From an uncultured Bacteroidales bacterium (lineage in GTDB: Bacteria > Bacteroidota > Bacteroidia > Bacteroidales > Paludibacteraceae): a stretch of 64,000 bases of DNA. The notes beneath the pieces were generated by a model that saw only the letters and a list, made by a program, of their open reading frames with translations, was not told the origin of the DNA and did not search any database. The stretch lies in the NCBI GenBank assembly GCA_900321005.1, contig ONUF01000015.1, positions 1,414 to 65,413 on the forward strand, written 5' to 3'. Of this stretch, positions 25,953 through 54,562 are shown in pieces (positions within the stretch are counted from its first letter, which is position 1; every line of letters starts with the position of its first letter). The position numbers were made by a program, and so were the translations under genes.

Positions 25953-25987
25953 CCTCAAAAAAGGAACAAGTGAAATAATTTATCTAT

Positions 25988-26099: not shown

Positions 26100-29000
26100 A
26101 TGAAAATTTTTAACTTAATCAAAAGGCTATGGACAGATAGCCATGAGAAACAATCACCGCAGCGGTTTGGACGGTATGCGGCAATGCTAATCATGCTCCT
26201 CACCCTCGGTGTCGGACAGATGTGGGCGAATGGAGACATTTATGGTTGTTGGTTCTCCTACTCCTATAGCGGAACAACAGGAGACAACAATGATTATAAC
26301 ACTTCCGGCGACAAAGACAAAGATTTAGGAACACTAACAGCCGATTTGATAGTAACATCCGTTTATCTTAAAATTTGGGATGATCAATCTGGCAGTCGCG
26401 CATGGACAAATGGTCAACTTTGTTATACTACGGACAATTGGGCTAACACCTCTTATGTCGGCAGCAATAATTGGACATTAGGAAGTAAGTCTGGAAATAA
26501 CTATCAATTAGAGAAAAGTAGCACAAGTTGGACACTCGCCAGCGCTACTGGCGCTTCTGGAAGTTATACTTTGAAATATTATTGGCAAGTATGGGGAGGT
26601 GGAGATAAATATCTTAATAATGGTGGTTCTAATTATTCTTTCACATACAAAGTTGCACCTCCGGCGGTTAGTGGATTCACAATCACACCTTCTGGTGAAG
26701 GCTATGTCAGCGGTTCTGGTACATCGGGAGACCCCTATATCATACACCGTTCTTCGGGTAATTTAACGCTTACAATTTCCGGATCTCAGGCACATACTGA
26801 TGCCAATTCAGTAGCAGAATATTCTGTAGATGGAGGCTCAACATGGTCTACATCCGTAGATTACGTTACTATCAACCGTGCTTTTGCTTCTACTACCGCC
26901 AAAAGCAAAACACTTAAAATGCGATATAAGAACTCAACTGCCAGTTTGACAGGTACAGAGAGCTCTTTTACAGCATATTATAAGTTAGAAGCAGGCTATA
27001 CTATTACTAAATGGGGAACTACAACCGGTGGTTCATACACCGTTCCTTCATCGGCCGGAGCTGTATCGGGTGGCACAGTAAGTGCAAGTCCAAGTACCGG
27101 TTATAATTTTGGTAGTTGGTCTGTAACATCTGGTTCCGGAACTTGGGAGAATAGTACATCAACTGCTAGCAATAAGTTTTACCCCACAAGTAATTCTACA
27201 TTAAAGGCCACCTTTACTGCCAAAAATTACACCGTTACGTTAGATAAAAACGATGGAGATTCGAATGGATCAATACGGACGACATATAATTCCACCTCGA
27301 CATCTTCTTTTACAGGTGCGTCACGTGTGGGCTACTCCTGCGACGGATATTTTACTGCATCTGATGGAGGAACCAAAATTATTAACGCGGATGGAACGTT
27401 AGTTAATGAAACCGTTTCCGGTTGGTTGAGTTCCGGTAAATGGGTAAAAAACGCAGCAACCATCACCCTTTATGCACATTGGATAGAAAATGCAACCAAT
27501 TATACGCTCCACTATACATACGGAACAGGTTTATCATCACTCTTTTCTTCAATAAGCGCAGTCAATTCCTCAGATGCATCTGCCATTAGCGACAATGCAT
27601 CATTGGTATCGGGAACAGGTGTCACCCTTACGGCCACACCTGCTACCCACTACAGATTTGATGGATGGTATAGTGCAGCAGGATGCGCAGCCAATACGCT
27701 GGTATCGACTAACAACCCTTATAGCTTCACCATGGATGACGACATCAATCTGTATGCTAAAGCAGTATTAATGACGACTACTATCACGCTTGATGCAAAC
27801 GGTGGTGCGGGTGGAACCTCGTCTGTTACAGCAACACATGGTAGTAACTCTTTATCTTCTTCCATTACCAAGCCGACCCGTACCGGTTATACTCTTTCTG
27901 GATGGTACACAGAGGAAAGCGGAGGAACACAAGTTATCTTGTCCTCCGGATATACTAAAGGAAGTGTTTCCGGCTACACAGATGCCAGCGGTAATTGGAC
28001 ATATACAGAAAGCACTCTTACGCTTTATGCTCACTGGACAGAGCAGAAAAAAACTCTTACACCGACGGTAAATTATAATGGAGGAGCGACTCCAAGTCCT
28101 GCATACACAGCGACATCAGCTAACACCGTCGGTGTTGCCACGACCACTGTACTGACGGCCTCAGAACCAAATGCAGAGCATTACACATTTGCAGGTTGGA
28201 CACTTACGAACCTGACAGTAACAAGTGGGAATGCTGCTACTGACCGCATTATTACGGTTAAGATAACCGATTATTCACAAGCTATTTCGGCTGTAGCAAA
28301 TTATACGGAGGTACTGACCAGCCGTTGGCACTTGGTGGGTGAGAGTTCTGACTTCCCTGATGGTTGGAATGTCAATTCGACCACGATGATGCAGAAAAAG
28401 ACAGGTCACTCGACAGAAGACGCTGTTTATTTTACGGTGGACGTAAACTCTACGGATGCTAAAGAATTCAAAATTGTGGATGACAATGGTGCAAGTGCTG
28501 ATATATGGTATGGCTATAGCAATGAAGCTCAGTACCAGCGCAATTGGACTAGCACAAACACTTATACCATATATAGTGGGTCTGGTAATGGTCAAAACTT
28601 AAAATATACTCCTACCGTAGTAGGTCCATATGAGTTTAAAGTTGACTATTCTGATGCAGACAATGTAGCTGTAACTGTTACATTCCCGACATCGTACACG
28701 CTGACCTATGACATCGGTACGGTAAAGGGTAACAACGGTAGTATTTCTACCAGCCCATCCACATCAAGCGGAAGTAAGGTACTAAGCGGCACTGATGTTA
28801 CTCTTACTGGTCCTGCTGCTGCAGCAGGTTATACCTGGAAAGGTTGGTACACGAACGCAGGCGGCACAACAGGTCACATTGAAGACGACACCCGCGCTAT
28901 CACGGTAACCATGAATGCCGACAAGACGCTGTATGCTTGCTATACGGAGAACAACTACACCGTTACTGTCAATGCAGGAGCTGGCGGTAGTGTAGCTTCC

Positions 29001-32000
29001 GGAAGCGTAACGGGTCATGTCAGCACGAAAGTAACGCTGCCAACGGCGACTCCTAGCACGGGCTATTACTTCACGGGTTGGGAAGTAACCAGCGGAACAG
29101 CAACACTGACTAGCGAGTCGAGCGCGAATGCAGCACAAATCAACGGCATGACAGCCGCTGTGACCGTGCGTGCGAACTTCGCTCCGATTTGGTATCTCAA
29201 GGGTGATTTCAACTCTTGGGGAGAAGGAAATCCGATTGCTCTGGCAAGTGCTACTTCCGGCTCTGTAACTTTGACTACTACGTCGGCTAAATTGTCGAAT
29301 AGCAAGTTTAAGATTTGGAACAAGCAAACAGACACCTATTACCAGAAAGCAAACCATGCTATTACCCGTGCAGCAAATACGGCGAGTGGTGGTTGGACAA
29401 ATGGCGGAACAAGCAACGACATGAAGTTCAACAGCGATGTCATCGGTGATTATATATTTGCTGTGACATTGTCATCCAACATTCCTTCCGCACTAACCGT
29501 CACCTATCCGGCGGCATATACCGTAACGTTCGGCATGGGTACTGGTGGTAGTACGATTACTGCAAGCACACCAAGTGCAGGTGGATCATTCACTTCGGGT
29601 GATTATGTGGCTTCCGGTGCTGATGTGACTTTCACTCAAACAGCTTCTTCAACCGGATACACCTTTACGGGTTGGTACACAACGAAGGATACGGGAGGTT
29701 CTGCTGTTACCGGCATGGGCGTTAGCGACAATGTATTAGAGAACGTCACGGCAAACAAAACCGTTTGGTCACGTTATACCGCTAACAATTATACCGTAAC
29801 GTTTGATAAGAACGGAGGAACAGTAACTCCATCTCCGACCAGCAAGAGTGTGACCTTCGGCTCGGCATATGGTGAATTACCCAGCGGAATGAAACACACA
29901 AGCAAGACCTTCGTAGGATGGTTCACAGAAAGCAGCGGCGGAACACTAGTTACTGCAGAAACTATAGTCAGCACGGCAAGTAACCACACGTTGTACGCAC
30001 AGTACGAGGATGTATACTCTGTGAACGTGGACTTCAAGTGTGGGGGTGCTAAAATCTATCCATCAACGGTTGTGAACGCTTCTCCGACCGCTTTGAGACC
30101 GACCATTACTGCGCCAGAGATCTTCGGTTATAGTTTCGTTAATTGGACCGGTGATGATGTTACTCCTGCAAGTGCGACAAGCGCGACAACAACTATTACA
30201 GCTACCGCAGCAACAACTATTACTGCAAACTATGCTGAAGTTCCAACGGTTTACTTCAAGAACAACCTTGAATGGGATTCCGTATTCGTATCGTTCGATA
30301 TTACGTGGACTACAGCCGGCGAAAAACAAGTGCCCAATAACAGCGGTAAGCCCTATTATGCTATGAAGCAAATTGGTACGACGGATATCTACTATTGCGA
30401 GATTCCGAGCACCTATACTGCCAGCAACTATGCAAGTTGGAGCGCAAATATTGCCTTCGACAACCAGAACTACAACCACAAGGCCACCACTACCCATACC
30501 GGAAATATGACGAGCTTCTACCAAGGCGAGTTCACCGGTCGTGGAGACTTTGACCCGAAAGCTACGTTGTTTATCCCATACAATGGCGATACCGAAGCAC
30601 GTAATGGCGGTACGTTCTACAAGACCGGTTGCTGGATGAAATATAACTCCACCGAATCAGGGTATCAACTGAATATGAATGAGTGGGTAACGGGAGAACA
30701 TGATGATCTGGCAACTCCAAATCTTACTGCTCCAACTGCAGGAGGATACGAGTTCTCTGCTACTGTTAACTTGTCAAATGCTGACTATAGTTATGGTTTC
30801 AAACTATACAAACAATATCAAAAGAACACAACGGATCTTTGGTACACCAATACCGGCACTATTAATGCCAGCACAGAGAGCTTGCCTTGGCATTTCTGGG
30901 CGGGTAGCACTATTACCGAAACTTCTCAACGTTGCGAATTACATACGGAGGCTGTCGGCGACTATAAGATCTCCGTTTCGTTTGCAACGGGTAGGCCGAT
31001 GGTAAATGTCGAGTATCCGACTCAGGTAGGCGATTGGCGTCTGGCTTACAACGACCGTATCGCATGGTCGGGCGACGCACATGCCGCAGATTGGTATATC
31101 TATTCACGCGTTATCAAAGCGAAAGCCGATGCAGAGGATCTCGTATCCTTCTACGTAAGCAAAGCTGTCGGCGCGAACGCGCATATCGAGTTGCAGAAAT
31201 GTACGGATATTAATCCTTCGACCGGCGCAGAGACATGGACCAAACAAGGTGACAATCTTGACCTCTCATCCATCACCGGAACCGGTATCTATAACTTCAA
31301 GGTTACGCAGAATGGAAGCAAAGTCGCTACCGCGGCTTATGATGGAGCTTATGAAGGCAACTTCTACATTCGCACCGATGCTTCGGATGGCGGATGGACG
31401 AACTACATCAGTTCAGGCAAGAACGTAATGACCTATTCGGAGTACGCAAAAGACTACAGCGGCTTCACGCACTACTATATGCGCTTCGTGGAGACCGGTA
31501 CGAACATCAAGTTTTGTATCGCCAACGACTATAGTCCGTGCCTCACGGAGTATTGTATAGACGATGACTATACAGGTGAGTATATCGAGGCTAAGGGCAA
31601 TGTACGCTACATGTGGGATCATCGCACGAATAAAGTCAGCCGCGCGTACATCAGCGGTTCTTCCGTAGTTTCCGACCGATTCCTCGTGCTGGAAGGAAAT
31701 ACCATGATTATGGCGGAAGACGGCACACCTCTGGCTATTGCTGGTCTGAATGCAAACGAGAAGAACTTTGCCGATGACCAGAACTGGATTTACGAAGCAA
31801 CTATTAAGGCAAAGCCAACAGCACGCGTTAAGTTGACTGCTAAGTTCAATAATCAGGTTCAGTACTTCAAGGGTTCAGAAGGTGCGTTTGCAGAAGGAAC
31901 AACTGTACAACTGATCGGCGGTACGGGTGATGACGCATACAAGATACGCGTTATCTATGATTTCAAGACCAACCGATTGGTAGGAGCTTGGCTGCCGGAT

Positions 32001-33479
32001 GATGAGACGGTGATTAGTAGCGATTGGCCGATAGATGCGGACATTATGGTGCTCCGTTATCACCAAGAAGGCGCGAAACAAATTAAGTTCTCCGGAAGCG
32101 GCGCATTGAGCGATGTGAAGACCGTATATGGAGCAATGCAGTTCAATAAATACCGTGTCAACAATAAAAGAGAAACTGCTCCACATGCCAACCTCGGATT
32201 GTCTAACTATGAGCGCGACTTGTACTGGATATCCTTCCCGTTTGAAGTGAAACTGAGTGACGTATTCGGTTTCGGAACCTACGGCAAGCACTGGATTATT
32301 GAGTACTACGACGGAAAGACTCGTGCTGCAAACGGCTTCTGGGCAGACAGCGATCCTAACTGGAAGTTCGTAACACCGAGTATGCGTAATAACGGCTACG
32401 TACTTAAAGCCAACCAAGGATATGTCCTTGCATTGGATCTGGATAATATGACCGAGGAGTCCGATGTCTGGGCTTATGGCACAGAGAATGTCTATCTGTA
32501 CTTCCCGTCGACGGCTCATGTAAGCGACATCGATGCGATGGACAGTAAGACGATTAGTATTGACCAAACAGGCTATGAGTGTACGATTAATCGTGGCACG
32601 CCGGATGGTGACCGTCGCGTAAAAGACAGTTACTGGCATGTGCTTGGCGTACCGAGTTATGCTAACGCAAGCCATGAAACGGCAAATGCATGGACAGGAA
32701 CAGTACCGAATATCGATCCGGATAACTGGACATCATCAGCTCCGTATATTTACGAGTGGGTTCCTTCAACCAACAAGTACACCGTTCATAGCAGTTCGTC
32801 AATGACATTCTTGCCGATGCATAGTTATTATGCTCAATATGCGCAAACGACTATCACTTGGACGAACATCAATGCAACTCCTGCGGCTTTGGTTGCACGT
32901 CGCAATGCGGCCCGCAAGAGCAATTATGAGTTCCGCATGGAAATGACTCTGGGCGATGAGGTAGCAGACCAGACCTTTGTTAGCTTCCGCGATGATGAAG
33001 CCGTTACGAATGAGTTTGACTTTAGCTACGACTTGAGTAAGATTACCAATGGTTCGTTTGCAAAGACTAACTGCATCTACACGCTGATTGGCTATGAGCG
33101 CGCTGCAGCTAACTGTTTGCCATTAGAAACAGAGGCAACCACTATCGTTCCTGTAGGCGTTAACATAGCGACCGCCGGCGAGTACACAATTGCTATCCCG
33201 AGCGGAACAAGCGGCGTAGGTGTGACACTGGTAGATAACGAGACGGGACTCCGCACCAACCTTGCGCTGGAGGATTACACCGTTGCGCTGGAGGCCGGCA
33301 CGCAAGACGACCGGTTCTACTTAGAGATCTCGCCGATCAAGCACGTCGCGACGGACATCGAGAATGTACAAAATGACGAAACCCAAAATGCAAAGGCACG
33401 CAAGGTTATCATCGATCAGAAGATGTACATCATCAAAGATGGTAGAGTATTTGACGCACAAGGTGCGAGAGTAAAATGA
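26100..33479 (+). CDS. Giant (2459 aa) cell-surface protein with Listeria-Bacteroides (InlB B-type) repeats, CBM-like modules and a possible T9SS-type C-terminal tail
   Basis: Signal/anchor AAMLIMLLTLGVGQMWA. At least 8 repeats of the form NYTVT(L/F)DKNGG...GY.F.GW(Y/F)T...GGT...LYA.W. WHLVGE/WYLKGDFNSWG modules. The C-terminus reads AGEYTIAIPS...VTLVDNETG...DRFYLEISP...KMYIIKDGRVFDAQGARVK. Confidence 0.8.
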   Translation: MKIFNLIKRLWTDSHEKQSPQRFGRYAAMLIMLLTLGVGQMWANGDIYGCWFSYSYSGTTGDNNDYNTSGDKDKDLGTLTADLIVTSVYLKIWDDQSGSRAWTNGQLCYTTDNWANTSYVGSNNWTLGSKSGNNYQLEKSSTSWTLASATGASGSYTLKYYWQVWGGGDKYLNNGGSNYSFTYKVAPPAVSGFTITPSGEGYVSGSGTSGDPYIIHRSSGNLTLTISGSQAHTDANSVAEYSVDGGSTWSTSVDYVTINRAFASTTAKSKTLKMRYKNSTASLTGTESSFTAYYKLEAGYTITKWGTTTGGSYTVPSSAGAVSGGTVSASPSTGYNFGSWSVTSGSGTWENSTSTASNKFYPTSNSTLKATFTAKNYTVTLDKNDGDSNGSIRTTYNSTSTSSFTGASRVGYSCDGYFTASDGGTKIINADGTLVNETVSGWLSSGKWVKNAATITLYAHWIENATNYTLHYTYGTGLSSLFSSISAVNSSDASAISDNASLVSGTGVTLTATPATHYRFDGWYSAAGCAANTLVSTNNPYSFTMDDDINLYAKAVLMTTTITLDANGGAGGTSSVTATHGSNSLSSSITKPTRTGYTLSGWYTEESGGTQVILSSGYTKGSVSGYTDASGNWTYTESTLTLYAHWTEQKKTLTPTVNYNGGATPSPAYTATSANTVGVATTTVLTASEPNAEHYTFAGWTLTNLTVTSGNAATDRIITVKITDYSQAISAVANYTEVLTSRWHLVGESSDFPDGWNVNSTTMMQKKTGHSTEDAVYFTVDVNSTDAKEFKIVDDNGASADIWYGYSNEAQYQRNWTSTNTYTIYSGSGNGQNLKYTPTVVGPYEFKVDYSDADNVAVTVTFPTSYTLTYDIGTVKGNNGSISTSPSTSSGSKVLSGTDVTLTGPAAAAGYTWKGWYTNAGGTTGHIEDDTRAITVTMNADKTLYACYTENNYTVTVNAGAGGSVASGSVTGHVSTKVTLPTATPSTGYYFTGWEVTSGTATLTSESSANAAQINGMTAAVTVRANFAPIWYLKGDFNSWGEGNPIALASATSGSVTLTTTSAKLSNSKFKIWNKQTDTYYQKANHAITRAANTASGGWTNGGTSNDMKFNSDVIGDYIFAVTLSSNIPSALTVTYPAAYTVTFGMGTGGSTITASTPSAGGSFTSGDYVASGADVTFTQTASSTGYTFTGWYTTKDTGGSAVTGMGVSDNVLENVTANKTVWSRYTANNYTVTFDKNGGTVTPSPTSKSVTFGSAYGELPSGMKHTSKTFVGWFTESSGGTLVTAETIVSTASNHTLYAQYEDVYSVNVDFKCGGAKIYPSTVVNASPTALRPTITAPEIFGYSFVNWTGDDVTPASATSATTTITATAATTITANYAEVPTVYFKNNLEWDSVFVSFDITWTTAGEKQVPNNSGKPYYAMKQIGTTDIYYCEIPSTYTASNYASWSANIAFDNQNYNHKATTTHTGNMTSFYQGEFTGRGDFDPKATLFIPYNGDTEARNGGTFYKTGCWMKYNSTESGYQLNMNEWVTGEHDDLATPNLTAPTAGGYEFSATVNLSNADYSYGFKLYKQYQKNTTDLWYTNTGTINASTESLPWHFWAGSTITETSQRCELHTEAVGDYKISVSFATGRPMVNVEYPTQVGDWRLAYNDRIAWSGDAHAADWYIYSRVIKAKADAEDLVSFYVSKAVGANAHIELQKCTDINPSTGAETWTKQGDNLDLSSITGTGIYNFKVTQNGSKVATAAYDGAYEGNFYIRTDASDGGWTNYISSGKNVMTYSEYAKDYSGFTHYYMRFVETGTNIKFCIANDYSPCLTEYCIDDDYTGEYIEAKGNVRYMWDHRTNKVSRAYISGSSVVSDRFLVLEGNTMIMAEDGTPLAIAGLNANEKNFADDQNWIYEATIKAKPTARVKLTAKFNNQVQYFKGSEGAFAEGTTVQLIGGTGDDAYKIRVIYDFKTNRLVGAWLPDDETVISSDWPIDADIMVLRYHQEGAKQIKFSGSGALSDVKTVYGAMQFNKYRVNNKRETAPHANLGLSNYERDLYWISFPFEVKLSDVFGFGTYGKHWIIEYYDGKTRAANGFWADSDPNWKFVTPSMRNNGYVLKANQGYVLALDLDNMTEESDVWAYGTENVYLYFPSTAHVSDIDAMDSKTISIDQTGYECTINRGTPDGDRRVKDSYWHVLGVPSYANASHETANAWTGTVPNIDPDNWTSSAPYIYEWVPSTNKYTVHSSSSMTFLPMHSYYAQYAQTTITWTNINATPAALVARRNAARKSNYEFRMEMTLGDEVADQTFVSFRDDEAVTNEFDFSYDLSKITNGSFAKTNCIYTLIGYERAAANCLPLETEATTIVPVGVNIATAGEYTIAIPSGTSGVGVTLVDNETGLRTNLALEDYTVALEAGTQDDRFYLEISPIKHVATDIENVQNDETQNAKARKVIIDQKMYIIKDGRVFDAQGARVK

Positions 33480-33493: not shown

Positions 33494-33525
33494 GTGAATT
33501 AGTGAATTAGAGAATTAGAGAAAGG
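33494..33525 (+). repeat. 8-nt tandem array GTGAATTA/GAGAATTA x4 forming the spacer before the 128-aa gene
   Basis: gtgaatta gtgaatta gagaatta gagaaagg, immediately followed by ATG. Confidence 0.9.
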
Positions 33526-33912: not shown

Positions 33913-33927
33913 TAACAGCAAACATAC

Positions 33928-33998
33928 CCGAATTATAGCCTGCAGCAATGCGGGCTATAGTTTTTTTGCGCAGCCAATTTGGTTTTAGTAAATAAACA
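33928..33998 (+). repeat. Direct repeat copy 1 (71 nt; includes the terminator)
   Basis: It differs from 34570-34641 at 2 substitutions plus one extra T in the T-tract. Confidence 0.9.
33934..33967 (+). terminator. Rho-independent terminator with a GNRA loop
   Basis: tatagcctgca-GCAA-tgcgggctata (11 bp including one G-U pair), then g and ttttttt. Confidence 0.8.
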
Positions 33999-34048
33999 AA
34001 AATACCAAAAATAATTATTGAACTCTTGCATATGTCAGAAAAAAGTTG

Positions 34049-34056
34049 TACTTTTG
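34049..34056 (+). promoter_or_regulatory. -7 box TACTTTTG for cassette 2
   Basis: gttgTACTTTTGcagc, 17 nt before the ATG at 34073. Confidence 0.55.
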
Positions 34057-34072
34057 CAGCGCAAAAGTTTAA

Positions 34073-34231
34073 ATGACAAAAAAACTGCCAATCATGGAAG
34101 CTGCATTAAAACAACCGATGAGCCAAGGAGGTTATGGAACAATCTCTGAGGAAAAATGGAACAGTCTGCATACCGTAGATGAACTGGATGCAACGTTGAA
34201 GGAGATCATCCACAACCATTTTCATGCATGA
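34073..34231 (+). CDS. Small protein (52 aa), candidate antitoxin of cassette 2
   Basis: Below the ORF-track cutoff. MTKKLPIMEAALKQPMSQGGYGTISEEKWNSLHTVDELDATLKEIIHNHFHA. It has the same GCATGA stop/start overlap as cassette 1. Confidence 0.5.
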   Translation: MTKKLPIMEAALKQPMSQGGYGTISEEKWNSLHTVDELDATLKEIIHNHFHA

Positions 34232-34548: not shown

Positions 34549-34569
34549 CGCACAACAAATAAGTAAAAA

Positions 34570-34641
34570 CCTAATTATAGCCTGCAGCGATGCGGGCTAT
34601 AGTTTTTTTTGCGCAGCCAATTTGGTTTTAGTAAATAAACA
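34570..34641 (+). repeat. Direct repeat copy 2 (72 nt; includes the terminator)
   Basis: Near-identical to 33928-33998. Together the two copies bracket cassette 2. Confidence 0.9.
34576..34610 (+). terminator. Rho-independent terminator with a GNRA loop (paralog)
   Basis: tatagcctgca-GCGA-tgcgggctata, then g and tttttttt. Confidence 0.8.
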
Positions 34642-34650
34642 TAGATAAAC

Positions 34651-34800
34651 TCCTCCGTATGAGTTAGCATGGTATACGGCCCACGCGGCCTTAGCATACT
34701 TGTCTACTAATACGCGCTCACAAGCGAGCTTGCAGCGCGGCTTACTAGCCAACTCCGCCGCACAAGAGTTGCGACATACCATACTACCTCATCCGTCGGC
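34651..34800. mobile_element. Hairpin-ended insertion element, copy A (150 bp), flanked by perfect GATAAAC direct repeats
   Basis: GATAAAC at 34644-34650 and again at 34801-34807. The roughly 30-nt termini tcctccgtatgagttagcatggtat / ataccatactacctcatccgtcgg are imperfectly complementary (about 21/30). The paralogous site at 33989-34020 lacks the insert. Confidence 0.6.
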
Positions 34801-34830
34801 GATAAACAAAAATAAAAATTATTTAAATCG

Positions 34831-34908
34831 AATTATTGAAATCGAATAATTATAAGTATAATAATTGAAGGCATAATTATTGAGATCGGATTATTCAAAT
34901 CGAATAAT
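34831..34908. promoter_or_regulatory. Array of AATTATTGA motifs including two perfect palindromes (candidate operator sites)
   Basis: aattatt-gaaatcg-aataatt (34831-34851) and attattc-aaatc-gaataat (34890-34908). Further AATTATTGA copies are at about 34874, about 34971 and 34012. Confidence 0.45.
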
Positions 34909-35019
34909 TGTAATTTAATTACGCTTGGAAGCGTAACGCTTAGAGGCGTAATAAGGACGAAAAATATGCAAAATTATTGAAATTTAATTATTTAATTTGC
35001 ATAATTCAAAAAAATGTAG

Positions 35020-35053: not shown

Positions 35054-36220
35054 ATGGATAAAATCACCAACCCATTTATCGTACAAGGCGACATCCCCGA
35101 GGCGTATTTCTGCGACCGCGAAAAGGAGACAGAGCATTTGATACGGTATATAACAAACGGCAATAATGTCGTTCTGTCTGCTCCGCGGCGCGTCGGGAAA
35201 AGCAAACTGATTGCACACTGCTTTGCACAACCGGAGATTAAAAAGCATTACTACACCATCTTCGTGGATATTCTGCAGACCAACAATCTGCAGGAGTTCA
35301 CATACGAATTGGGAAAAGCCGTGTTTGGAATTACCGGTTCTCTCGGCAGTAAGATGCTGAAGTTATTCGGGCAAACCGTTCACTCGCTACGTGGAGAATA
35401 TACGATAGACCCGATGACGAATCTGCCTAAATTCAGCATGGCTCTCGGGCATATCGAAAATCCGACATATACCATAGAGGAGGTGTTCGAGTTTCTCGAA
35501 AAAGCCGACAAACCATGTATTGTGGCGATTGACGAGTTTCAGCGCATAGCTCAATATCCGGAGAAGAATGTAGAGGCTATTCTGCGCACACATATCCAGC
35601 GTATGCGTAATTGCAACTTTATTTATGCCGGTTCTGAAAGACACCTATTGGGCCAGATGTTCTTAGACTATAACCGTCCCTTCTATCAGAGCTCGTCCAT
35701 GATGAACTTGGAAAAGATAGAGCGAAACAAATATAGCGCTTTTGCCGTCAAGCATTTTAATGAGTTCGGGAAGAGCATCACCGAAGAGAATGTCAACCGC
35801 GTATACGATTTATTCGACGGCAACACGTTCGCGATGCATAAAACGCTGAACGTAGCCTTCTCTATCACGCCGGAAGGGAACGAATGCGATCTACCTACCC
35901 TTCGCAAAGCGATAGAGAACATCTTGGGCGAAAGCGACCACGATTTTCGCGCCAGATTGATGCCTATGAGTTTGCCGCAAAAAGAAGTACTCTACGCGAT
36001 TGCACGCAGCGGCATTGCTACGCAGATTACCGGCGCTGATTTCTTAAAAAAGCACCATTTAGGTTCCTCCAGTTCTGTACAATCGGCGGTTCGCAAACTG
36101 CTGGCAGACGGATGGATTACAGAGTACTACAATGCTGATGGTAAGAAATGCTATCAGCTATACGACTATTTCCTGACCCTGTGGATTCAGCAGAATTACG
36201 GAAGAGGATACGAATTATAA
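35054..36220 (+). CDS. ATP-binding protein, Arch_ATPase (PF01637)/DUF234-like
   Basis: Start trimmed to MDKITNPFIVQG. Walker A SAPRRVGKS, Walker B IVAIDEFQ and a C-terminal winged-helix-like region. Confidence 0.7.
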   Translation: MDKITNPFIVQGDIPEAYFCDREKETEHLIRYITNGNNVVLSAPRRVGKSKLIAHCFAQPEIKKHYYTIFVDILQTNNLQEFTYELGKAVFGITGSLGSKMLKLFGQTVHSLRGEYTIDPMTNLPKFSMALGHIENPTYTIEEVFEFLEKADKPCIVAIDEFQRIAQYPEKNVEAILRTHIQRMRNCNFIYAGSERHLLGQMFLDYNRPFYQSSSMMNLEKIERNKYSAFAVKHFNEFGKSITEENVNRVYDLFDGNTFAMHKTLNVAFSITPEGNECDLPTLRKAIENILGESDHDFRARLMPMSLPQKEVLYAIARSGIATQITGADFLKKHHLGSSSSVQSAVRKLLADGWITEYYNADGKKCYQLYDYFLTLWIQQNYGRGYEL

Positions 36221-36253
36221 TTGATTATTGATGATTGATAATTGAAAATTAGT
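36219..36253 (+). repeat. Heptamer array AATTGAT-family x5 forming the ATPase-panD spacer
   Basis: aattgat tattgat gattgat aattgaa aattagt. It overlaps the TAA stop of the ATPase gene. Confidence 0.9.
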
Positions 36254-40897: not shown

Positions 40898-41866
40898 ATG
40901 AGAAGAAATATAGCCATTATTGCCGGCGGAGACAGCAGCGAACATGAGGTGTCGCTTCGTTCGGCGGCAGGTATCTATTCCTTTATGGACAAGGAGCGCT
41001 ACGATTGCACGATCGTGGTGTTTGACGGTAAGAATTGGCACACCGAAGCCGGTGAGCCGATCGATAAGAACGATTTTTCTTTTACGCGCGGGGGCGTGAA
41101 GCACACCTTCGATTTCGCGTACATCACGATACACGGTACGCCGGGCGAGAACGGCATTCTGCAGGGATACCTCGACATGATCGGCATGCCTTACTCCTGC
41201 TGCGGAGTCTTGGCCGCAGCGCTGACGTTCAACAAGTACGCCTGCAACCACTACCTGTCGTATTTCGGATTCCATATCGCGAACAGCATGATGCTGCGTA
41301 AGGGGCAGAAGTTGCCCAACGCGCCGAAGATTGCGGAGACCTTAGGTCTGCCCTGTTTCATCAAATCGAACGTGGGCGGTTCGAGTTTCGGTTGCACGAA
41401 AGTGAAGACCGTCGAAGAGGTCTATCCCGCTATCGAGCGCGCGTTCCAAGAAGGCGACGAGGTGATCTGCGAGTCGTTTATGCAAGGCACGGAGGTGACC
41501 TGCGGCGTCTATAAGACGAAGGACAAAGCGGTGGCTTTCCCCATCACGGAGGTCGTCACGCACAACGAGTTCTTCGACTATAACGCGAAGTACAAAGGCG
41601 AGGTCGATGAGATCACACCGGCGCGTATTCCGGATGCGGTGCGCGACAAAATCCAAGCCGAGACACTGCGTCTGTACGACATCATCGGCGCACAGGGCAT
41701 CATCCGCGTGGATTGGATTATTACGGGTGACAAGATCAACCTCCTTGAAGTGAATACGACGCCGGGAATGACACCGACGAGTTTTATTCCGCAGCAAGTA
41801 AGAGCCGCGGGGCTCGACATAAAGGACGTGCTAACGGATATTATCGAAAACAAGTTTTCGAATTGA
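40898..41866 (+). CDS. ddl: D-alanine--D-alanine ligase
   Basis: Start trimmed to MRRNIAIIAGGDSSEHEVSLRSA, followed by an ATP-grasp region (GGSSFG, EVNTTPGMT). Confidence 0.9.
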   Translation: MRRNIAIIAGGDSSEHEVSLRSAAGIYSFMDKERYDCTIVVFDGKNWHTEAGEPIDKNDFSFTRGGVKHTFDFAYITIHGTPGENGILQGYLDMIGMPYSCCGVLAAALTFNKYACNHYLSYFGFHIANSMMLRKGQKLPNAPKIAETLGLPCFIKSNVGGSSFGCTKVKTVEEVYPAIERAFQEGDEVICESFMQGTEVTCGVYKTKDKAVAFPITEVVTHNEFFDYNAKYKGEVDEITPARIPDAVRDKIQAETLRLYDIIGAQGIIRVDWIITGDKINLLEVNTTPGMTPTSFIPQQVRAAGLDIKDVLTDIIENKFSN

Positions 41867-41895
41867 TAATTGATGATTGATAATTGATGATTGAT
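41861..41895 (+). repeat. Heptamer array AATTGAT/GATTGAT x5 containing both the ddl stop and the next gene's start
   Basis: aattgat aattgat gattgat aattgat gattgat. TGA is at 41864-41866 and ATG at 41887. Confidence 0.92.
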
Positions 41896-42855
41896 ATTAT
41901 CAAGGAAATAGAGAATCTGGATTGGAGCAAGGAGCCGAAGGGGCTGTATGAACCGATTGCGTACACCTTGGCTTCCGGCGGGAAGCGTTTGCGTCCCACC
42001 CTCGCCCTGATTGCGGCGGAGGTGATTATGAACGAAGGTCTGCTGAACGGCGATGCGATAGAACATACCGTACCGGCGGCGTTGGCGCTGGAGATTTTCC
42101 ATAACTTCACGCTGCTGCACGACGATGTGATGGACCGCGCAGCGGTTCGCCGCGGAAGACCGACCGTGCACGTAAAATGGAATGACAACACCGCGATCCT
42201 TTCCGGCGACCAGATGCTCATCGAGGCCTATAAGCAATTGGCGCAAGTGCCGGCAGACAAGTTACCGCAAGTGCTGAGATGGTTCAACGAGATGGCGACG
42301 GGAATATGCGAGGGGCAGCAGTATGACGTGGATTTCGAGCACCAGCGCCAAGTAAGCATCGAGGACTACATGATGATGATTGAGAAGAAGACCTCCGTGC
42401 TGATTGCCAATGCGCTGCGGACGGGCGGATATATCGCCGGTGCGAACCCTGCGCAACAGGAAGCGCTCTACCAATACGGCCTGCATATCGGTTTGGCGTT
42501 CCAGATCCAAGACGATATATTGGATGTGTACGGTGACCCGAAGACTTTCGGCAAAGCTATCGGCGGCGATATCTGCTGCAACAAAAAGACCATCCTGTTG
42601 CTCACGGCGCTGGAGCAGGCCGACGATCAGACGAAAGCCGAGTTGCAGCAGTGGCTCGATGTTTCCGACCGCGATGCGGAGAAGATTGCCACCGTGACGG
42701 AGCTGTACAACCGCTTGGGAGTACGCGAACGCGTAGAAGAAGTGATGGAGCAACATACCGCTCTGGCGCTCGCGCAACTCGATAAGTTGCCGCAGAACGC
42801 CGCTTGCGAGAAGTTGCGTACGCTCGCCGAGCGGCTCGTCACGCGAAAGAGTTAA
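41887..42855 (+). CDS. Polyprenyl diphosphate synthase (trans-IPPS family)
   Basis: FHNFTLLHDDVMD and FQIQDDILD aspartate-rich motifs. I prefer the ATG at 41887 over the TTG at 41884. Confidence 0.85.
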   Translation: MIDIIKEIENLDWSKEPKGLYEPIAYTLASGGKRLRPTLALIAAEVIMNEGLLNGDAIEHTVPAALALEIFHNFTLLHDDVMDRAAVRRGRPTVHVKWNDNTAILSGDQMLIEAYKQLAQVPADKLPQVLRWFNEMATGICEGQQYDVDFEHQRQVSIEDYMMMIEKKTSVLIANALRTGGYIAGANPAQQEALYQYGLHIGLAFQIQDDILDVYGDPKTFGKAIGGDICCNKKTILLLTALEQADDQTKAELQQWLDVSDRDAEKIATVTELYNRLGVRERVEEVMEQHTALALAQLDKLPQNAACEKLRTLAERLVTRKS

Positions 42856-42882
42856 AGAATTAAAGATTAAAGAATTAAAGAT
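42853..42882 (+). repeat. 7/8-nt array TAAAGAAT/TAAAGAT x4 forming the whole spacer
   Basis: taaagaat taaagat taaagaat taaagat, then ATG. The first unit holds the TAA stop. Confidence 0.9.
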
Positions 42883-43650: not shown

Positions 43651-44227
43651 TGACGCGATGCACGTTATGATCGCGGAAGAGATGCGGGATGTCGTGTTTC
43701 TTTAACTGGAACGCATAGCAGATACCGAATTTCTTCACTCCCGGGTGCTTACGAAGGAACTTATCGTAATACCCGCCGCCGCGACCGATACGGTGACAAT
43801 GGTGATCAAACACCACGCCGGGGACAAGCATCAAGTCGATAGGACCTTTCCAAGTCGGCGTCTGGGGTTCGGGAACGCCCAAACGACCCTTACGCATCAT
43901 GTCCTCGCCGTCATAGGGACGGACCTCTATCGAATAACGATGGGTGACAGGGAAAAGGAAAGTTTTTTGATCCTGATACTTGGCGAGCAGCGGACGAAGG
44001 TCCACCTCGTTATGCACAGGGTAATAGATGAGCACCGTTTGGGCATCGCGGAAAGCAGCCATCTGCTCAATCTGCGCACAGATACGCGCAGAGTCCGCAG
44101 CGACATCCTCGGGCGACAACATACGACGACGCTGCTCCACAATAGCGCGAAGCGCGGCCTGCTCGCGACGGATTCGCACCCACGGAAGCCAGGACTTGAT
44201 GTCATGTATTTGAGAGTCGAACAACAT
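43625..44227 (-). CDS. 5-formyltetrahydrofolate cyclo-ligase
   Basis: LIYYPVHNEVDLRPLL and DLMLVPGVVFDHHCHRIGRGGGYYDKFL. Its 3' end overlaps the convergent gene by 26 nt. Confidence 0.82.
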   Translation of the reverse strand: MLFDSQIHDIKSWLPWVRIRREQAALRAIVEQRRRMLSPEDVAADSARICAQIEQMAAFRDAQTVLIYYPVHNEVDLRPLLAKYQDQKTFLFPVTHRYSIEVRPYDGEDMMRKGRLGVPEPQTPTWKGPIDLMLVPGVVFDHHCHRIGRGGGYYDKFLRKHPGVKKFGICYAFQLKKHDIPHLFRDHNVHRVITPQQTIG

Positions 44228-44262
44228 GTGTAATGTGTAATGTGTAATGTGTAATGTTTAGT
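44228..44262. repeat. Heptamer array GTGTAAT x4 plus GTTTAGT
   Basis: It starts at the nucleotide next to the minus-strand start codon (cat 44225-44227). It belongs to the same family as 52139-52166. Confidence 0.92.
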
Positions 44263-44304: not shown

Positions 44305-45645
44305 ATGCGCAAATATTTCTATATATTATTGTCGATTTTTCTCGTGAGCCTCACCGGTTGCGAGGGCGGAGGCAGTGCTTCGGTTCCTTCATCCGTAGCC
44401 AAACTGAGTGTGTTCTACTTCGCGGCGAATGATTCGAATCCGGGTTTGGCGGAGGCGGTCTTCACGATTGAGGAGCGCCTGGACACGGGTTTGGTTTGGA
44501 ACAAAGACTCGATGCTTTTCGGTACGCGTTTGGACAGCGTCGTGCCCAAGTTCTCCTTCGCGGCTACGCCGAGTGCGGCCTACCTGCATATGAAGGACAC
44601 GTTCATCGCGCTCTCGGGTTACGACACGCTGGATTTCAACGTAAGGCCTATCTACCTCACGATTCGTTCCGGCGACCGCTCGACTATCAAAACCTATGAG
44701 ATACGCGCGACCGTGCATCAGGCGGATCCGGACCTCTATACATGGGATGTCCTCACGCCGCAGATATACGAGGTTGAAGACAGCGAGCAGAAAGTAGTGG
44801 AGTTAGACGACAGCTTCGTGCTCATCAAGTCCAACGGTTTTGCGCTGCGCGCGTACCAGTCCGAAGACGGAGCCGAATGGCTCGACCTCGGTAGCCCCAC
44901 CGGTCTGCCGGCCGGCACGAAGGTACGCCAGATGATCAGCGACGGCAAAACACTGTACTACGGTCAGGACAACAAGATATACACCAGTACGGATGCCGTC
45001 ACATGGACTGCGCATACCGTGAACTATCCCGTCGTGACGATGCTGATGTACTGGAACAACCTGATTTGGGCATTAGTAGAAAACAACGGTTATGAGTTGG
45101 CATGGTGGGAGGACGAGGCATTAGCGCTGAGCGGCATGCGTCCGCAAGGCTCGTTCCCCGTAAGCGATTTCGGTACGGTGGTGTTTCAGAGTGCGAGCCT
45201 GCGCGAACGCGCGATGATCATCGGCGGCTATGCCGACAACGGCGAGTCGCTTAACACGCGCTGGAACTTCGAGTACTCGACCCATCCTATGCCGAAGGGC
45301 GAATACCGCATGGAGGAGTTCTCGATTGACCGACCGAAGTTCACCCGTCTGACCGGCATCTCCGTCATCTGGTACAACAACCGGTTGATGATGTTCGGCG
45401 GCGTGGATGAGAAGATGAGTTATCTCGGCCGCGAGATCCTGATCTCCGAGGACGAGGGCCTCAACTGGACGAAAGCCGACTCGACGAAGAACCAGTTGCC
45501 GGAAGTGTATCGCGCAAGGCAGAAACAGACGGCTATCGTGCGCGGCAACTACATCTACCTCTTCGGAGGACAGGATGCGGACATCTCCTATAGCGATGTC
45601 TATCGGGGATATCTGAACTCCATCGGATGGAATTCAAACAATTAA
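44305..45645 (+). CDS. Hypothetical lipoprotein with a C-terminal Kelch/beta-propeller-like region
   Basis: Start trimmed to MRKYFYILLSIFLVSLTGCEGG (lipobox). Later repeats resemble IIGGY...W and LFGGQD. Confidence 0.5.
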   Translation: MRKYFYILLSIFLVSLTGCEGGGSASVPSSVAKLSVFYFAANDSNPGLAEAVFTIEERLDTGLVWNKDSMLFGTRLDSVVPKFSFAATPSAAYLHMKDTFIALSGYDTLDFNVRPIYLTIRSGDRSTIKTYEIRATVHQADPDLYTWDVLTPQIYEVEDSEQKVVELDDSFVLIKSNGFALRAYQSEDGAEWLDLGSPTGLPAGTKVRQMISDGKTLYYGQDNKIYTSTDAVTWTAHTVNYPVVTMLMYWNNLIWALVENNGYELAWWEDEALALSGMRPQGSFPVSDFGTVVFQSASLRERAMIIGGYADNGESLNTRWNFEYSTHPMPKGEYRMEEFSIDRPKFTRLTGISVIWYNNRLMMFGGVDEKMSYLGREILISEDEGLNWTKADSTKNQLPEVYRARQKQTAIVRGNYIYLFGGQDADISYSDVYRGYLNSIGWNSNN

Positions 45646-45661
45646 CTAAAATATTACTATT

Positions 45662-49472: not shown

Positions 49473-50679
49473 TTTAGAATCCCATATTGCCTGGCGGTAC
49501 CTTTTCTCGAAGAAAGGGCATAACGCCATCAACATCGTCTCCGGCATCAGCGCGGCGGCAGTTGCTGTCGTGACGGCGGCGATGATTTCAGTATTATCCG
49601 TGATGAACGGATTCGGCACGCTGGTGGAGCACATGTTCTCGGAGTTCGATCCGGTGCTATTGGTCGTTCCGACCGAAGGAGCCACCTTACGCACCGACAC
49701 CGCGCCGATTATTTCTTTATACGCGCGCGAGGACATCGAGGCTATCTCCATGCAACTGGAGCAGACCGCGCTTATTCGCTACAAGGACCATCAGACGCCG
49801 GCGCGCGTGATGGGTGTGGACAGTCTGTTTACGCAAACCGCGCATATCGACTCGATCATTTCCGACGGTTTCTATTCGGTATGGGACGGCGCTTTCGACC
49901 GCGTGACGATGGGTAGAGGTCTGGCGGCTCAGATAGGTATGAACGCGCATTTCACGGGGGCGTTACACCTCTATGCGCCGCAGCGCACGGGACGCATCAA
50001 CATGATGCGACCGGACTTGAGTTTGAACCACGAGCATGCCTTCATCGCCGGCACGTTTGCCGTGAACCAGGTCGAATATGACGACCAGTTACTCCTTGTC
50101 TCCCTACCCCTCGCACAACGGCTCTTCGACTATGACGAGTTTACGGCAAGTGCACTGCGAATAGCAATCAGTAATCAGCAATCAGTAATCAGCAAATCTG
50201 AAATCTCTAAGATTTTAGGGCCCGGTTACAAAGTTTTGGATCGCTATGAGCAGCAGGCGAGTTTCTTCAATATCTTGCGCATTGAGAAACTGCTGACGAT
50301 CTTGTTACTCGTCTTCATCTTGCTGATTGCGAGCTTTAATATTATCGGTTCGCTCTCGATGCTGATTATCGACAAGCGCGAAGACATACAGATTCTTTCG
50401 CACTTAGGCGCAGACGAAGCGACGATTCGCCGTGTGTTCCTGCTCGAAGGATGGTTTATCTCTTCGCTGGGTGCATTGATAGGACTTATCGCCGGCGTGC
50501 TGCTGTGCCTCGGTCAGCAACATTTCGGTTGGTTGAAATTAGGCAGCGGCGCGGAGTACGTGATCTCCGCCTATCCGGTACAGGTACAGGTGCTCGACAT
50601 CGTGCTGGTAGCCGCGATTGTACTGGCGTTGGGTTTCGCCGCCGCTCTTTATCCCTCCCGCAAAATACAAATCCAATGA
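49465..50679 (+). CDS. FtsX/MacB-type permease, LolE-like
   Basis: I prefer the start MPNLESHIAWRYLFSKK. It has four TM segments, a periplasmic domain and a C-terminal FtsX region. Confidence 0.75.
   Translation: MPNLESHIAWRYLFSKKGHNAINIVSGISAAAVAVVTAAMISVLSVMNGFGTLVEHMFSEFDPVLLVVPTEGATLRTDTAPIISLYAREDIEAISMQLEQTALIRYKDHQTPARVMGVDSLFTQTAHIDSIISDGFYSVWDGAFDRVTMGRGLAAQIGMNAHFTGALHLYAPQRTGRINMMRPDLSLNHEHAFIAGTFAVNQVEYDDQLLLVSLPLAQRLFDYDEFTASALRIAISNQQSVISKSEISKILGPGYKVLDRYEQQASFFNILRIEKLLTILLLVFILLIASFNIIGSLSMLIIDKREDIQILSHLGADEATIRRVFLLEGWFISSLGALIGLIAGVLLCLGQQHFGWLKLGSGAEYVISAYPVQVQVLDIVLVAAIVLALGFAAALYPSRKIQIQ
50163..50204 (+). repeat. In-frame heptamer array (6 units) inside the LolE-like CDS
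   Basis: agcaatc agtaatc agcaatc agtaatc agcaaat ctgaaat. It encodes AISNQQSVISKSEIS. Confidence 0.92.
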
Positions 50680-51248: not shown

Positions 51249-52144
51249 CATCGGATGCAGAGCTTCGGCGCGAGTACCATACGTGGTTGCGTCTGGAGCG
51301 CGGTTATTCACCGAACACCATCGAGGGCTACGAGATGGACCTCGACAAGCTGCGTGCGTACGGCGAGGAGCATCACGTGGATATCGTGCACATGAGTTTT
51401 GACGAGTTACAAGAGTGCATCTTTACGCTCTTCAAAGATGTTCGTTCCGAAGGAACACAGGCCCGTATTCTCGCGGGTATACACTCGTGGTTTCGCTTTC
51501 TGCTGTACAAAGACTATATTGACCAAGACCCTTCGGAACTGTTGGAAGGGCCGCGTAAGTCCAAACACCTGCCGACGGTGCTCTCGCTGGATGAGGTGAA
51601 CCGGATGATGGCGGCGATCGACCTGAGCAGCAACGAAGGTCACCGCAACCGCGCGATGATGGAGATGCTCTACGGCAGCGGTCTGCGCGTGAGCGAGTTG
51701 GTCAATCTGCAGTTGAGTAAGATATACCTTCACGAACATTACATGCTGATAGAGGGCAAGGGCTCGAAACAACGCCTTGTGCCGCTCTCGCCGGTAGCCG
51801 AAGAATGGTTCGGGTACTGGATGCAGGAACGTGCGACCTGGCCGCTCAAGCCCGAGTCGAAGGATATCGCGTTTGTCAACCGTTACGGTAGGCCGATGAC
51901 GCGGGCGATGGTCTTTACTATCGTACGTAAGCTCTGCGCCGAGGCAGGTATTACCAAGACGGTGAGTCCGCATACGCTGCGTCACTCTTTCGCAACCCAC
52001 CTGCTGCAGAACGGCGCCGACCTACGCGTGATACAGCAACTGCTGGGACACGAAGACCTGGCGACTACCGAGATATACACGCATATTGATGTCCAAGACC
52101 TGAGAAAAGCCATACTTCAATGTCATCCGGCGAATAAAGTGTAA
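51233..52144 (+). CDS. xerD: Site-specific tyrosine recombinase XerD
   Basis: GTG start. LERGYSPNTIEGY and HTLRHSFATHLLQNGADLRVIQQLLGHEDLATTEIYTH. It is embedded among core genes. Confidence 0.85.
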   Translation: MGKTITSDAELRREYHTWLRLERGYSPNTIEGYEMDLDKLRAYGEEHHVDIVHMSFDELQECIFTLFKDVRSEGTQARILAGIHSWFRFLLYKDYIDQDPSELLEGPRKSKHLPTVLSLDEVNRMMAAIDLSSNEGHRNRAMMEMLYGSGLRVSELVNLQLSKIYLHEHYMLIEGKGSKQRLVPLSPVAEEWFGYWMQERATWPLKPESKDIAFVNRYGRPMTRAMVFTIVRKLCAEAGITKTVSPHTLRHSFATHLLQNGADLRVIQQLLGHEDLATTEIYTHIDVQDLRKAILQCHPANKV

Positions 52145-52166
52145 TGTGTAAGGTGTAGTGTTTAGA
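52139..52166 (+). repeat. Heptamer array of the GTGTAAT family containing the xerD stop and the next gene's GTG start
   Basis: gtgtaat gtgtaag gtgtagt gtttaga. TAA is at 52142-52144 and GTG at 52158. Confidence 0.9.
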
Positions 52167-54509: not shown

Positions 54510-54513
54510 AAAT

Positions 54514-54555: not shown

Positions 54556-54562
54556 AAAAAAG

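Follow-up and report, generated by a model that had tools for sequence, protein, structure and literature searches.

Heptanucleotide tandem repeats are an already described class of bacterial sequence, to which the short tandemly repeated repetitive (STRR) heptamers of cyanobacteria (Calothrix and Nostoc) are related. We analysed arrays of this kind in a 64,000-nucleotide (nt) stretch of a rumen Paludibacteraceae (Bacteroidales) genome (assembly GCA_900321005.1, contig ONUF01000015.1, positions 1,414 to 65,413; hereafter the window), in which a run of AATTGAT and GATTGAT units fills the junction between ddl, the D-Ala-D-Ala ligase gene, and a polyprenyl synthase gene. The arrays belong to this described class, and we put at roughly three in four the probability that they are microsatellites generated by slippage, which start from gene-boundary sequence and are then filtered by selection.

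Prokaryotic long simple sequence repeats (LSSRs) were the subject of Mrazek, Guo and Shah (2007) who, as their work is presented in two later papers (PMC4679880, PMC4692102), found heptanucleotides to be the most abundant class and suggested polymerase-related slippage. As far as those presentations describe LSSRs (units of 5–11 nt), the arrays here resemble them in their head-to-tail order, the predominance of period 7, a mostly intergenic position where the unit is not a multiple of three, a sporadic phylogenetic distribution, variation in length and sequence between close relatives, and presumed slippage. Unlike LSSRs as so described, they occur at about three arrays per 10 kb with many units per genome instead of one dominant unit, with documented seeding on stop and start codons, and they often occupy protein loops in frame, in steps of 21 nt.

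MacGregor (2015) reported that TAACTGA is repeated ahead of start codons in Beggiatoaceae, Cyanobacteria and five Bacteroidetes, Paludibacter propionicigenes among them, with forward repeats giving stops in all frames and Bacteroidetes spacers holding other heptamer repeats too (PMC4679880). Common to that system (marine Beggiatoaceae, 2–6 copies) and the present arrays are an A/T-rich heptamer with TAA and TGA, an intergenic position, which for some of the arrays here is just upstream of starts, the lack of predicted RNA structure, and forward stops that limit overlap of open reading frames (ORFs) while the reverse strand is translatable (LSVISYQ there, SVISNQ-type peptides here). Unlike that system, in which one heptamer dominates and related ones are rarely repeated, dozens of units are found here with no evident rule of orientation or position. 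In Xanthomonas and Nostoc, Rehm et al. (2015) found heptamers over-represented intergenically, with close relatives differing extensively in their length and sequence (PMC4692102). The present arrays share with STRR and with the GGGAATC and GGGGA(T/C)T repeats of those genera (PMC4692102) a genome-wide intergenic occurrence between the same genes and variability in related strains, but those units are G- or C-rich, few per genome and of G-quadruplex potential, whereas the units here are A/T-rich, diverse and unstructured. An earlier note on this DNA, made from its letters, knew of no described function for such arrays; the class has in fact been described, and a candidate role in translation has been considered for the near-identical TAACTGA (PMC4679880). 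No paper on heptamer repeats in Bacteroidales came up in our literature search.

The focal junction is composed as follows.

40898–41866, + strand: ddl, D-Ala-D-Ala ligase gene (Pfam Dala_Dala_lig_N/C), its start inferred through orthologue alignment
41861–41896, + strand: focal array of AATTGAT/GATTGAT units, 5.1 copies, occupying the entire spacer from ddl to the polyprenyl synthase
41887–42855, + strand: polyprenyl synthetase gene (Pfam polyprenyl_synt)

Tandem Repeats Finder (TRF) describes the focal array as period 7 in 5.1 copies or, alternatively, as a perfect 14-mer in 2.5 copies; the units are AATTGAT, AATTGAT, GATTGAT, AATTGAT and GATTGAT, followed by a single A. As the earlier note had read it, the array holds both a stop and a start. 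The ddl stop TGA (41864–41866) lies in unit 1 and the synthase ATG (41887–41889) straddles units 4 and 5, so the 20-nt spacer consists wholly of repeat. The synthase starts ATG ATT GAT ATT (M-I-D-I, conserved among orthologues), of which ATG ATT GAT agrees with the repeat unit, and orthologous starts read atgatcgat. Direct reading of the array also gives a four-codon mini-ORF, from ATG at 41873 to TGA at 41885–41887, whose stop overlaps the synthase ATG as TGATG and which, on the letters, appears to be a by-product of the array.

Seven-base tandem arrays are real and far above chance. TRF reports about 15 period-7 and five period-8 arrays in the window and recovers all 11 loci that the earlier note lists, nine of them with period 7 (7348, 12104, 19064, 24134, 36213, 41861, 44226, 52135, 54512) and two with period 8 or mixed 7/8 (33496, 42846). 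Non-redundant period-7 arrays of at least three copies number at least 10, against 0.07 per dinucleotide-preserving shuffle. Relatives were collected by a Ddl protein scan with one genome per species, giving 80 loci (1.34 Mb), nearly all from rumen or gut "Paludibacteraceae/Bacteroidales" metagenome-assembled genomes with Ddl identities of 71–97%. Period 7 accounts for 270 of their ~440 TRF arrays, followed by periods 8, 11, 9 and 6 with 42, 34, 24 and 21, and array density ranges from 0 to 8.6 per 10 kb between species. When exact runs of at least 2.5 copies are counted in the window and relatives together, period 7 yields 141 against 0.4 in local-composition shuffles; the other periods yield 29 (period 6), 12 (8), 9 (9), 10 (11) and 7 (5). 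Since period 7 exceeds the frame-preserving periods 6 and 9, the excess points to a bias in mutational input and not to selection on frames. Head-to-tail units within the 5–11 nt range, lengths above chance, a predominant period of 7 and a concentration of non-multiple-of-three units outside coding sequence place the arrays among long simple sequence repeats. An assembly artefact is ruled out by the recurrence of the same arrays in independent assemblies from different samples.

An exact-match scan of public metagenomes for (AATTGAT)4 returned at least 120 contigs with GC contents of 21–60%, which carry at least 111 further period-7 arrays with other units (2.5 per 10 kb); period 7 is dominant among the contigs listed (191 of ~290 arrays). 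Among the matches listed, (AATTGAT)n occurs in co-directional spacers 19 times forward and 12 times reverse, between convergent genes nine times, between divergent genes six times, and within ORFs nine times, always in the stop-free (antisense) orientation. The heptamer-array phenomenon is general and not tied to gene orientation.

Turnover of units is plain at the focal junction itself. Among the 80 species, ~25 have an ATGA overlap or 1 nt at the ddl–synthase junction, the longest spacer measures 178 nt, and about 30 of the 80 hold heptamer or octamer arrays with many different units, including AGGTGAA, TAATTGR, AAATTGA, AAATTAA, GGAATAA, CGAATTAG, CCATCAG, TCGTTRG, AATCGTA and others. Repeatedly, the unit equals the 3' end of the ddl gene of the same species, stop codon included.

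ddl tail and stop gAATTGA, unit AAATTGA
ddl tail and stop gAATTAA, unit AAATTAA
ddl tail and stop GGAATAA, unit GGAATAA
ddl tail and stop CGAATTAG, unit CGAATTAG
ddl tail and stop in the window tcgAATTGAT, unit AATTGAT

The seed of the focal array is accordingly the end of ddl, tcgAATTGA. Units that equal the end or start of an adjacent gene show local seeding by tandem duplication, and local seeding is the reason why arrays contain both stop and start.

The remaining arrays of the window, on which the comparison of close strains draws, are the following.

7348–7382, + strand: AAAGGAG, 5 copies, in the divergent spacer upstream of gldD (- strand)
12104–12135, + strand: AATTGAT, 4.6 copies, in the 43-nt spacer between a GT4/GT5 glycosyltransferase gene and a GH57 gene
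19064–19094, + strand: degenerate AGTAGTC, 4.4 copies, past the terminator hairpin of a sigma-70 gene and between convergent 3' ends
24134–24163, + strand: AGTAATC, 4.3 copies, directly after the glucan phosphorylase stop and before a terminator-like hairpin, in the 3' untranslated region (UTR)
25094–25204, + strand: three 8-nt arrays, TTTGCCAC, AAAGTATC and AGCGACAC, in a non-coding stretch of a variable island
33496–33522, + strand: 8-nt array GAATTAGA, 3.4 copies, between the gene for a 2459-amino-acid (aa) repeat protein and the next ORF
36213–36250, + strand: AATTGAT family, 5.6 copies, overlapping the ATPase stop TAA (36218–36220), with the panD ATG 10 nt past its end
42846–42882, + strand: mixed 8/7-nt AAAGA(A)TT, 4.6 copies, from the synthase tail and stop through to the next ATG (42883)
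44226–44257, + strand: perfect ATGTGTA, 4.6 copies, filling the divergent 26-nt spacer between the 5-formyltetrahydrofolate (5-FTHF) cyclo-ligase gene (- strand) and the DUF6242 gene (+ strand)
52135–52161, + strand: TAATGTG type, 3.9 copies, spanning the stop of an xerD-like recombinase gene (52142–52144) and the GTG of the DUF5686 gene (52158), both of which thus lie inside the array as had been noticed earlier
54512–54557, + strand: ATAATAG, 6.6 copies, between convergent 3' ends
6561–6591, - strand: coding heptamer, sense AATCTTC/AATCTCC, encoding ..SSISNLQSPI.. in a PcrB-like domain
21235–21266, - strand: coding heptamer, sense CAATCAT, 4.6 copies, encoding NHQSSIINQQ in an RNB nuclease loop
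48176–48229, + strand: coding TCAGYRR with a 21-nt super-period, 2.6 copies, encoding QRSAISD QRSAISD in a metallophosphoesterase tail
50163–50195, + strand: coding AATCAGT/AATCAGC, encoding AISNQQSVIS in an FtsX-like permease
52929–52947, + strand: short coding TCAGTAA, 2.7 copies, in the DUF5686 gene

Near-strains were found by exact-protein look-ups with RbfA and thioredoxin, which gave 17 contigs from independent samples that are 93–97.6% identical to the window (the exact look-up with Ddl gave no match); what is compared is assembled contigs from different samples. The earlier note had proposed comparing copy number between strains, and it does vary, in whole-unit steps as expected of slippage in long simple sequence repeats. 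The 54512 array measures 32, 46, 53 or 60 nt, with ATAATTG variants, and in one strain (L090) is a 22-nt tract of a different unit, CTAACAG. The array at 24134 is 30, 44 or 51 nt long, the 8-mer array at 25094 is 14, 22 or 30 nt, and the array at 42846 has three distinct alleles. At 44226 the length is 32 or 39 nt (39 nt in L082 and L087), and a TAATTGA/TTATTGC array replaces it in eight strains. The coding array at 48176 is 33 or 54 nt long, a difference of exactly 21 nt, or three units and seven residues (312 versus 319 aa). Other arrays are stable: the interrupted array at 12104 has the same length in seven near-strains, the one at 36213 is identical in L081, which holds the only identical panD copy found by exact look-up, and the RNB nuclease array, whose loop lies between the DDAL and HIADV motifs, is invariant in length among strains.

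Whole arrays also come and go. Among near-strains the focal array is found only in the window and L086, and L083, L085, L088 and L090 have a non-repeat 33-nt spacer in its place. The 19064 array is present in two of eight sequences (the window and L092), with 9–10 nt at that position in the six other strains. At the xerD-like junction (52135), L083 and L090 carry instead a GTTTAGT array copied from the downstream start region GTG TTT AGA. Between DUF6242 and pgk, a perfect GATTGAT array of 4.6 copies in three strains and 3.6 copies in one (32 and 25 nt) is missing from the window; it lies at L083:4487-4518, L085:4466-4497, L090:4487-4518 and L089:4391-4415, equivalent to 45640–45661 of the window, and it rewrites the C-terminal tail of DUF6242 (..GWGED* vs ..GWNSNN*) and is followed by an A8 run. 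Such a pattern is what marks microsatellite slippage in which arrays are rapidly gained, lost and replaced. Of the explanations that the earlier note had offered, two are supported, footprints of a repeat-generating process and slipped-strand tracts, as copy number changes in whole units, arrays appear, vanish and are replaced, and their units are copied from a gene's tail and stop or from a start region.

We infer slippage during replication or repair as the molecular event. Strand misalignment during DNA synthesis would make and resize the arrays, with a mutational input in this lineage that is strongly biased to a 7-nt register. New arrays would start from short proto-repeats in the scarce non-coding bases of compact gene boundaries, supplied by the last bases and stop of the upstream gene or, on the downstream side, by the opening codons or the A-rich surroundings of the start, so that an overlapping or very short junction could be stretched into a spacer of 20–60 nt made entirely of repeat. 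Selection would then remove harmful arrays. Non-coding DNA of any kind would tolerate them; at gene 3' ends they would be tolerated if the unit carries a stop, as when it is copied from a stop codon; and within genes survival would be limited to units that lack stops and lie in permissive loops or tails, and these would change in 21-nt (seven-residue) steps.

About 67% of arrays fall in the ~8% of sequence outside greedy ORFs. By the same greedy ORF calls, 15% of co-directional, 16% of divergent and 5% of apparent convergent junctions hold an array; arrays are thus not confined to stop/start junctions, and co-directional junctions are no richer in them than divergent ones. The same note's statement that arrays make up entire intercistronic spacers is right for ddl and the synthase, but five arrays lie within ORFs (6561, 21235, 48176, 50163, 52929), others between convergent (19064, 54512) or divergent genes (7348, 44226), and one in a 3' UTR (24134). 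Of the 283 period-7 arrays in the enlarged set, 94 are found far inside long ORFs. ORF-internal arrays appear to be stop-free in-frame insertions, including some in loops of Ddl and the RNB nuclease.

The ddl gene of relatives has in-frame heptamer insertions at two loop sites, one following DGKNW.. and the other following VDWIITG (L008, L016, L017, L022, L012, L026, L030, L032 and others, at ~10160–10190 and 10870–10940; L082/L087:338-376). Their units and the encoded peptides differ per species (AATGGAR giving PNGEWKMENGKW, AATGGAC giving PNGQWTMDNGQW, and also GGGTTAC, ACAAAGG and ACAATGT), and even among genomes at ~93% identity to the window some carry an insertion and others do not.

Stop content is strand-specific, as claimed earlier: among 148 arrays in co-directional spacers, the cyclic unit holds a stop triplet in 115 on the sense and 57 on the antisense strand, and the sense count is a significant excess over the 100 ± 4.4 expected from composition. 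The arithmetic by which a 7-nt unit with a stop presents stops in all three frames is also right. Both points would suit arrays selected as all-frame insulators, in which the repeat closes three frames and ends the run of read-through or frameshifted ribosomes between cistrons. The excess is limited, however, to arrays overlapping the native upstream stop, 66 of 72 of which have sense stops by construction. Arrays that start after the stop codon have them in 49 of 76 cases against 44.6 ± 3.2 expected (P = 0.11), and those starting more than 10 nt past it in 25 of 45 against 23.1, so there is no stop excess elsewhere. Deep in ORFs sense stops are depleted (14 of 94 against 39.7 expected), and antisense stops match expectation in every array class. 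Stop richness and strand asymmetry follow from seeding on stop codons, an A-rich sense strand (A 0.40, T 0.30) and purifying selection in genes; since these three causes account for the stops, selection for an all-frame barrier is not needed. Arrays are also found where no ribosome needs stopping, at convergent 3' ends, past terminators, in divergent spacers and within ORFs, and some intergenic units, such as AAAGGAG at 7348, have no stop triplet on either strand. Many species have an ATGA overlap at the ddl–synthase junction, and periods 4, 5, 8 and 10 would be equally good barriers yet are not enriched. We therefore rejected the insulator, an extremely improbable reading whose stop excess vanishes once arrays overlapping native stops are set aside.

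Units recur within genomes, as the earlier note had remarked: out of 810 array pairs within genomes, 28 have one unit in common, read from the same strand, where composition predicts one or two. RATTGAT in this species is found at 12104, 36213, 41861, 21235 (antisense to the gene), the pgk junction and in variants of 54512 and 44226, and RATCAGY at 24134, 48176, 50163 and 52929. Recurrence above chance would be expected if the arrays, above all TAATTGA, were a cis-acting RNA or DNA platform that binds a factor or promotes or regulates Shine-Dalgarno-independent initiation, as proposed for TAACTGA in Beggiatoaceae, and such repeats have been reported in Paludibacter propionicigenes (PMC4679880). 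Other details lean the same way. TAATTGA and TTACTGA, both in the window, each differ from TAACTGA by a single base, AGTAATC differs by one base from the complement of TAACTGA, and one strain (L096) has (TCAGTTA)3, which is TAACTGA on the opposite strand, at the 24134 locus. RATTGAT arrays are mostly forward and 0–37 nt from start codons. A forward setting within a few nucleotides of the start downstream is seen at 12104, 36213 and 41861; arrays are also found at convergent ends, in 3' UTRs and in ORFs.

Against a platform stands the diversity of the units, with 130 different units among the 283 arrays, 72 unit classes among the 148 co-directional-spacer arrays, and differing units at one orthologous junction. 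Presence and absence differ between strains of one species at housekeeping genes, and the metagenome contexts listed above include reverse, convergent and ORF-antisense positions beside the forward ones. Exact tandem TAACTGA occurs neither in the window nor in the 80 loci, and units within one mismatch of it are barely above expectation (8 against 3 among the 148 arrays), for which reason membership in the TAACTGA system was rejected. The earlier note had imagined an unstructured A/T-rich initiation platform. RNA fold z-scores at six junctions run from -0.84 to +1.49, which is ordinary, and Rfam at its gathering score identified in the window only a tRNA-Arg (18059–18132), with no RNA family at the arrays; RNA that is structured or unusually unstructured was rejected on these grounds. 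Overall we consider a platform very improbable.

Slippage could also serve regulation. In Haemophilus influenzae, an ATCTTTC tract upstream of hmw1A/hmw2A grades expression via a dedicated 5' UTR hairpin (PMC12721329, PMC2651432), and by analogy the arrays might be contingency loci whose copy number tunes promoter spacing, 5' UTR length or intercistronic coupling. The hmw tract, which is transcribed in the 5' UTR, has like these arrays a 7-nt unit whose copy number is changed by slippage, and it sets a precedent for graded expression from such a tract (PMC12721329); copy number does vary between near-strains here, and some arrays lie in divergent promoter regions (7348, 44226) or hold start codons (41861, 52135). 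The hmw tract is, however, one dedicated locus of 11 repeats or more, with a G-rich partner arm, RNase III processing and an adhesin target, whereas these arrays are short (4–7 copies), have no hairpin partner in the window and adjoin housekeeping genes (ddl, polyprenyl synthase, panD, pgk, glycogen enzymes) and not surface or variable functions. Flanking genes do include a recombinase, and the surface- or variable-gene setting of hmw-type loci is not seen. The most variable arrays (54512, 24134) are downstream of genes. The earlier note's slipped-strand contingency tracts are thus half right: slippage stands, with 7-nt steps (21-nt in coding sequence) between near-strains, and contingency, given its housekeeping neighbours, is very improbable.

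The same heptamer could instead have been spread to many loci by copy-and-paste or recombination, through elements like repetitive extragenic palindromes (REP) or miniature inverted-repeat transposable elements (MITE) or through gene conversion. Recurrence of units above chance, the existence of an array allele without a visible local seed, and multi-copy palindromic elements in relatives that have inverted heptamer-array arms all speak for a dispersed or mobile origin. But no array of the window has an inverted partner, outside the repeat itself the flanks of five RATTGAT arrays have nothing in common, the neighbouring gene end is demonstrably the source of many units, and lengths change in single-unit steps. 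We regard this origin as highly improbable, and a REP/MITE-like palindromic source of the window arrays was rejected for want of inverted arms and related flanks.

The palindromic element of the relatives deserves description in its own right. It is 118–140 nt long with arms of inverted heptamer arrays, and it forms the ddl/synthase spacer in some species (L011:11098-11215, L042:11018-11135, L050:11045-11163, L017:11054-11193, L036:11072-11203), with further sites at L064:1547-1676 and 3444-3560. Its RNA fold z-scores are -4.0 and -5.2. Copies are 94–100% identical between species whose flanking genes are only 67–90% identical, and partial or whole copies at other loci make it multi-copy. Its appearance is that of a heptamer-built element, either REP/MITE-like or a structured RNA.

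Several observations weigh against slippage with local seeding as the whole account. The array-free DUF6242/pgk allele shows no visible proto-repeat. The 28 shared-unit pairs exceed not only the compositional expectation but also the ~9 expected from the between-genome non-syntenic rate, and pure local seeding does not obviously explain RATTGAT at six to seven loci or more with unrelated flanks. Arrays occupy the ddl junction in ~40% of species against ~15% for the average junction, which could mean a favoured site and not neutrality, and individual arrays may have a functional side-effect. The census gene maps are crude greedy ORF calls, and class counts carry error accordingly. A bolder version would have a heptamer-register factor, either a replisome or repair variant or a heptamer-recognising protein, shared by Paludibacteraceae, Beggiatoaceae and Cyanobacteria, favouring TAANTGA-like units, differing in activity between sister species, remodelling gene boundaries and writing seven-residue repeats into essential proteins. 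We think this unlikely; if true, the many rumen genomes of the clade would allow the determinant of the 7-nt preference to be mapped by comparative genomics.

Slippage-generated microsatellites reveal no new regulatory device. For annotation, they explain unstable spacers, gene tails and start codons in an abundant rumen lineage, and ORF callers that over-extend starts or call shadow ORFs on stop-free strands. For evolution, they would offer a simple route from ATGA-coupled overlapping cistrons to separated ones, and a route for seven-residue repeats into loops of essential enzymes (Ddl, RNB nuclease). As to mechanism, hundreds of assembled genomes with very different array densities are natural material on why bacterial slippage prefers 7-nt units. 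PMC4679880 and PMC4692102 give no tested explanation of that preference, and the only published idea that we found is a polymerase-footprint hypothesis attributed to Mrazek et al. (2007).

Other repeats and loci of the window are recorded here. Period 11 is the second excess of the lineage (38 exact runs against 0.2 expected). At 7551–7614, 11-nt arrays of CGACATTACCC and then ACCCCGAGACG lie in the leader of a glgC-like nucleotidyltransferase gene (ATG 7653), and upstream of them a Bacteroidetes-type TAnnTTTG motif, TATATTTG, is found within the run TTGTATATTTGCACG near 7460. The island at 24200–26100 has a low GC content (42%), genes for HEPN (24379–24771) and a probable nucleotidyltransferase antitoxin, and several 11-nt arrays beside its three 8-nt arrays; its gene content varies between near-strains (ParE/YoeB, Abi_2, ORF6N, DUF2683). 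Next to it, the 2459-aa protein (26100–33479, + strand) has Listeria-Bacteroides repeat (Flg_new) domains and is likewise hypervariable in length, its orthologue measuring 2239–2644 aa in near-strains.

A 385-aa ORF at 5591–6748 (- strand) joins a PcrB-family domain (residues 11–225) to a TadA-like cytidine/adenosine deaminase domain (243–385) through a linker encoded by a 9-nt repeat (NTPNTP; TRF 6028–6047), and may stem from the fusion of two genes through expansion of the repeat over the junction that once separated them. The intergenic regions 33913–34227, 34549–34996 and 19952–20080 share segments of 45–78 nt at 89–94% identity, a dispersed intergenic repeat family that is also present in L011, L012, L036 and L050; a degenerate 14-nt (2 x 7) array of about seven copies lies at 34817–34914. 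In the 1571–1703 spacer, a ~50-nt segment matches, at 85–90% identity, a non-syntenic intergenic region (~18.0–18.8 kb) of at least nine related loci, and may represent a conserved module (small RNA, promoter or terminator). Period-9 repeats of TTCGCCGCC and TTCACCGCC at 299–355, 787–814 and 1151–1205 lie within the long minus-strand ORF 2–1570 and so would be coding tri-peptide repeats; such frame-preserving repeats exist here, yet are much rarer than heptamers.

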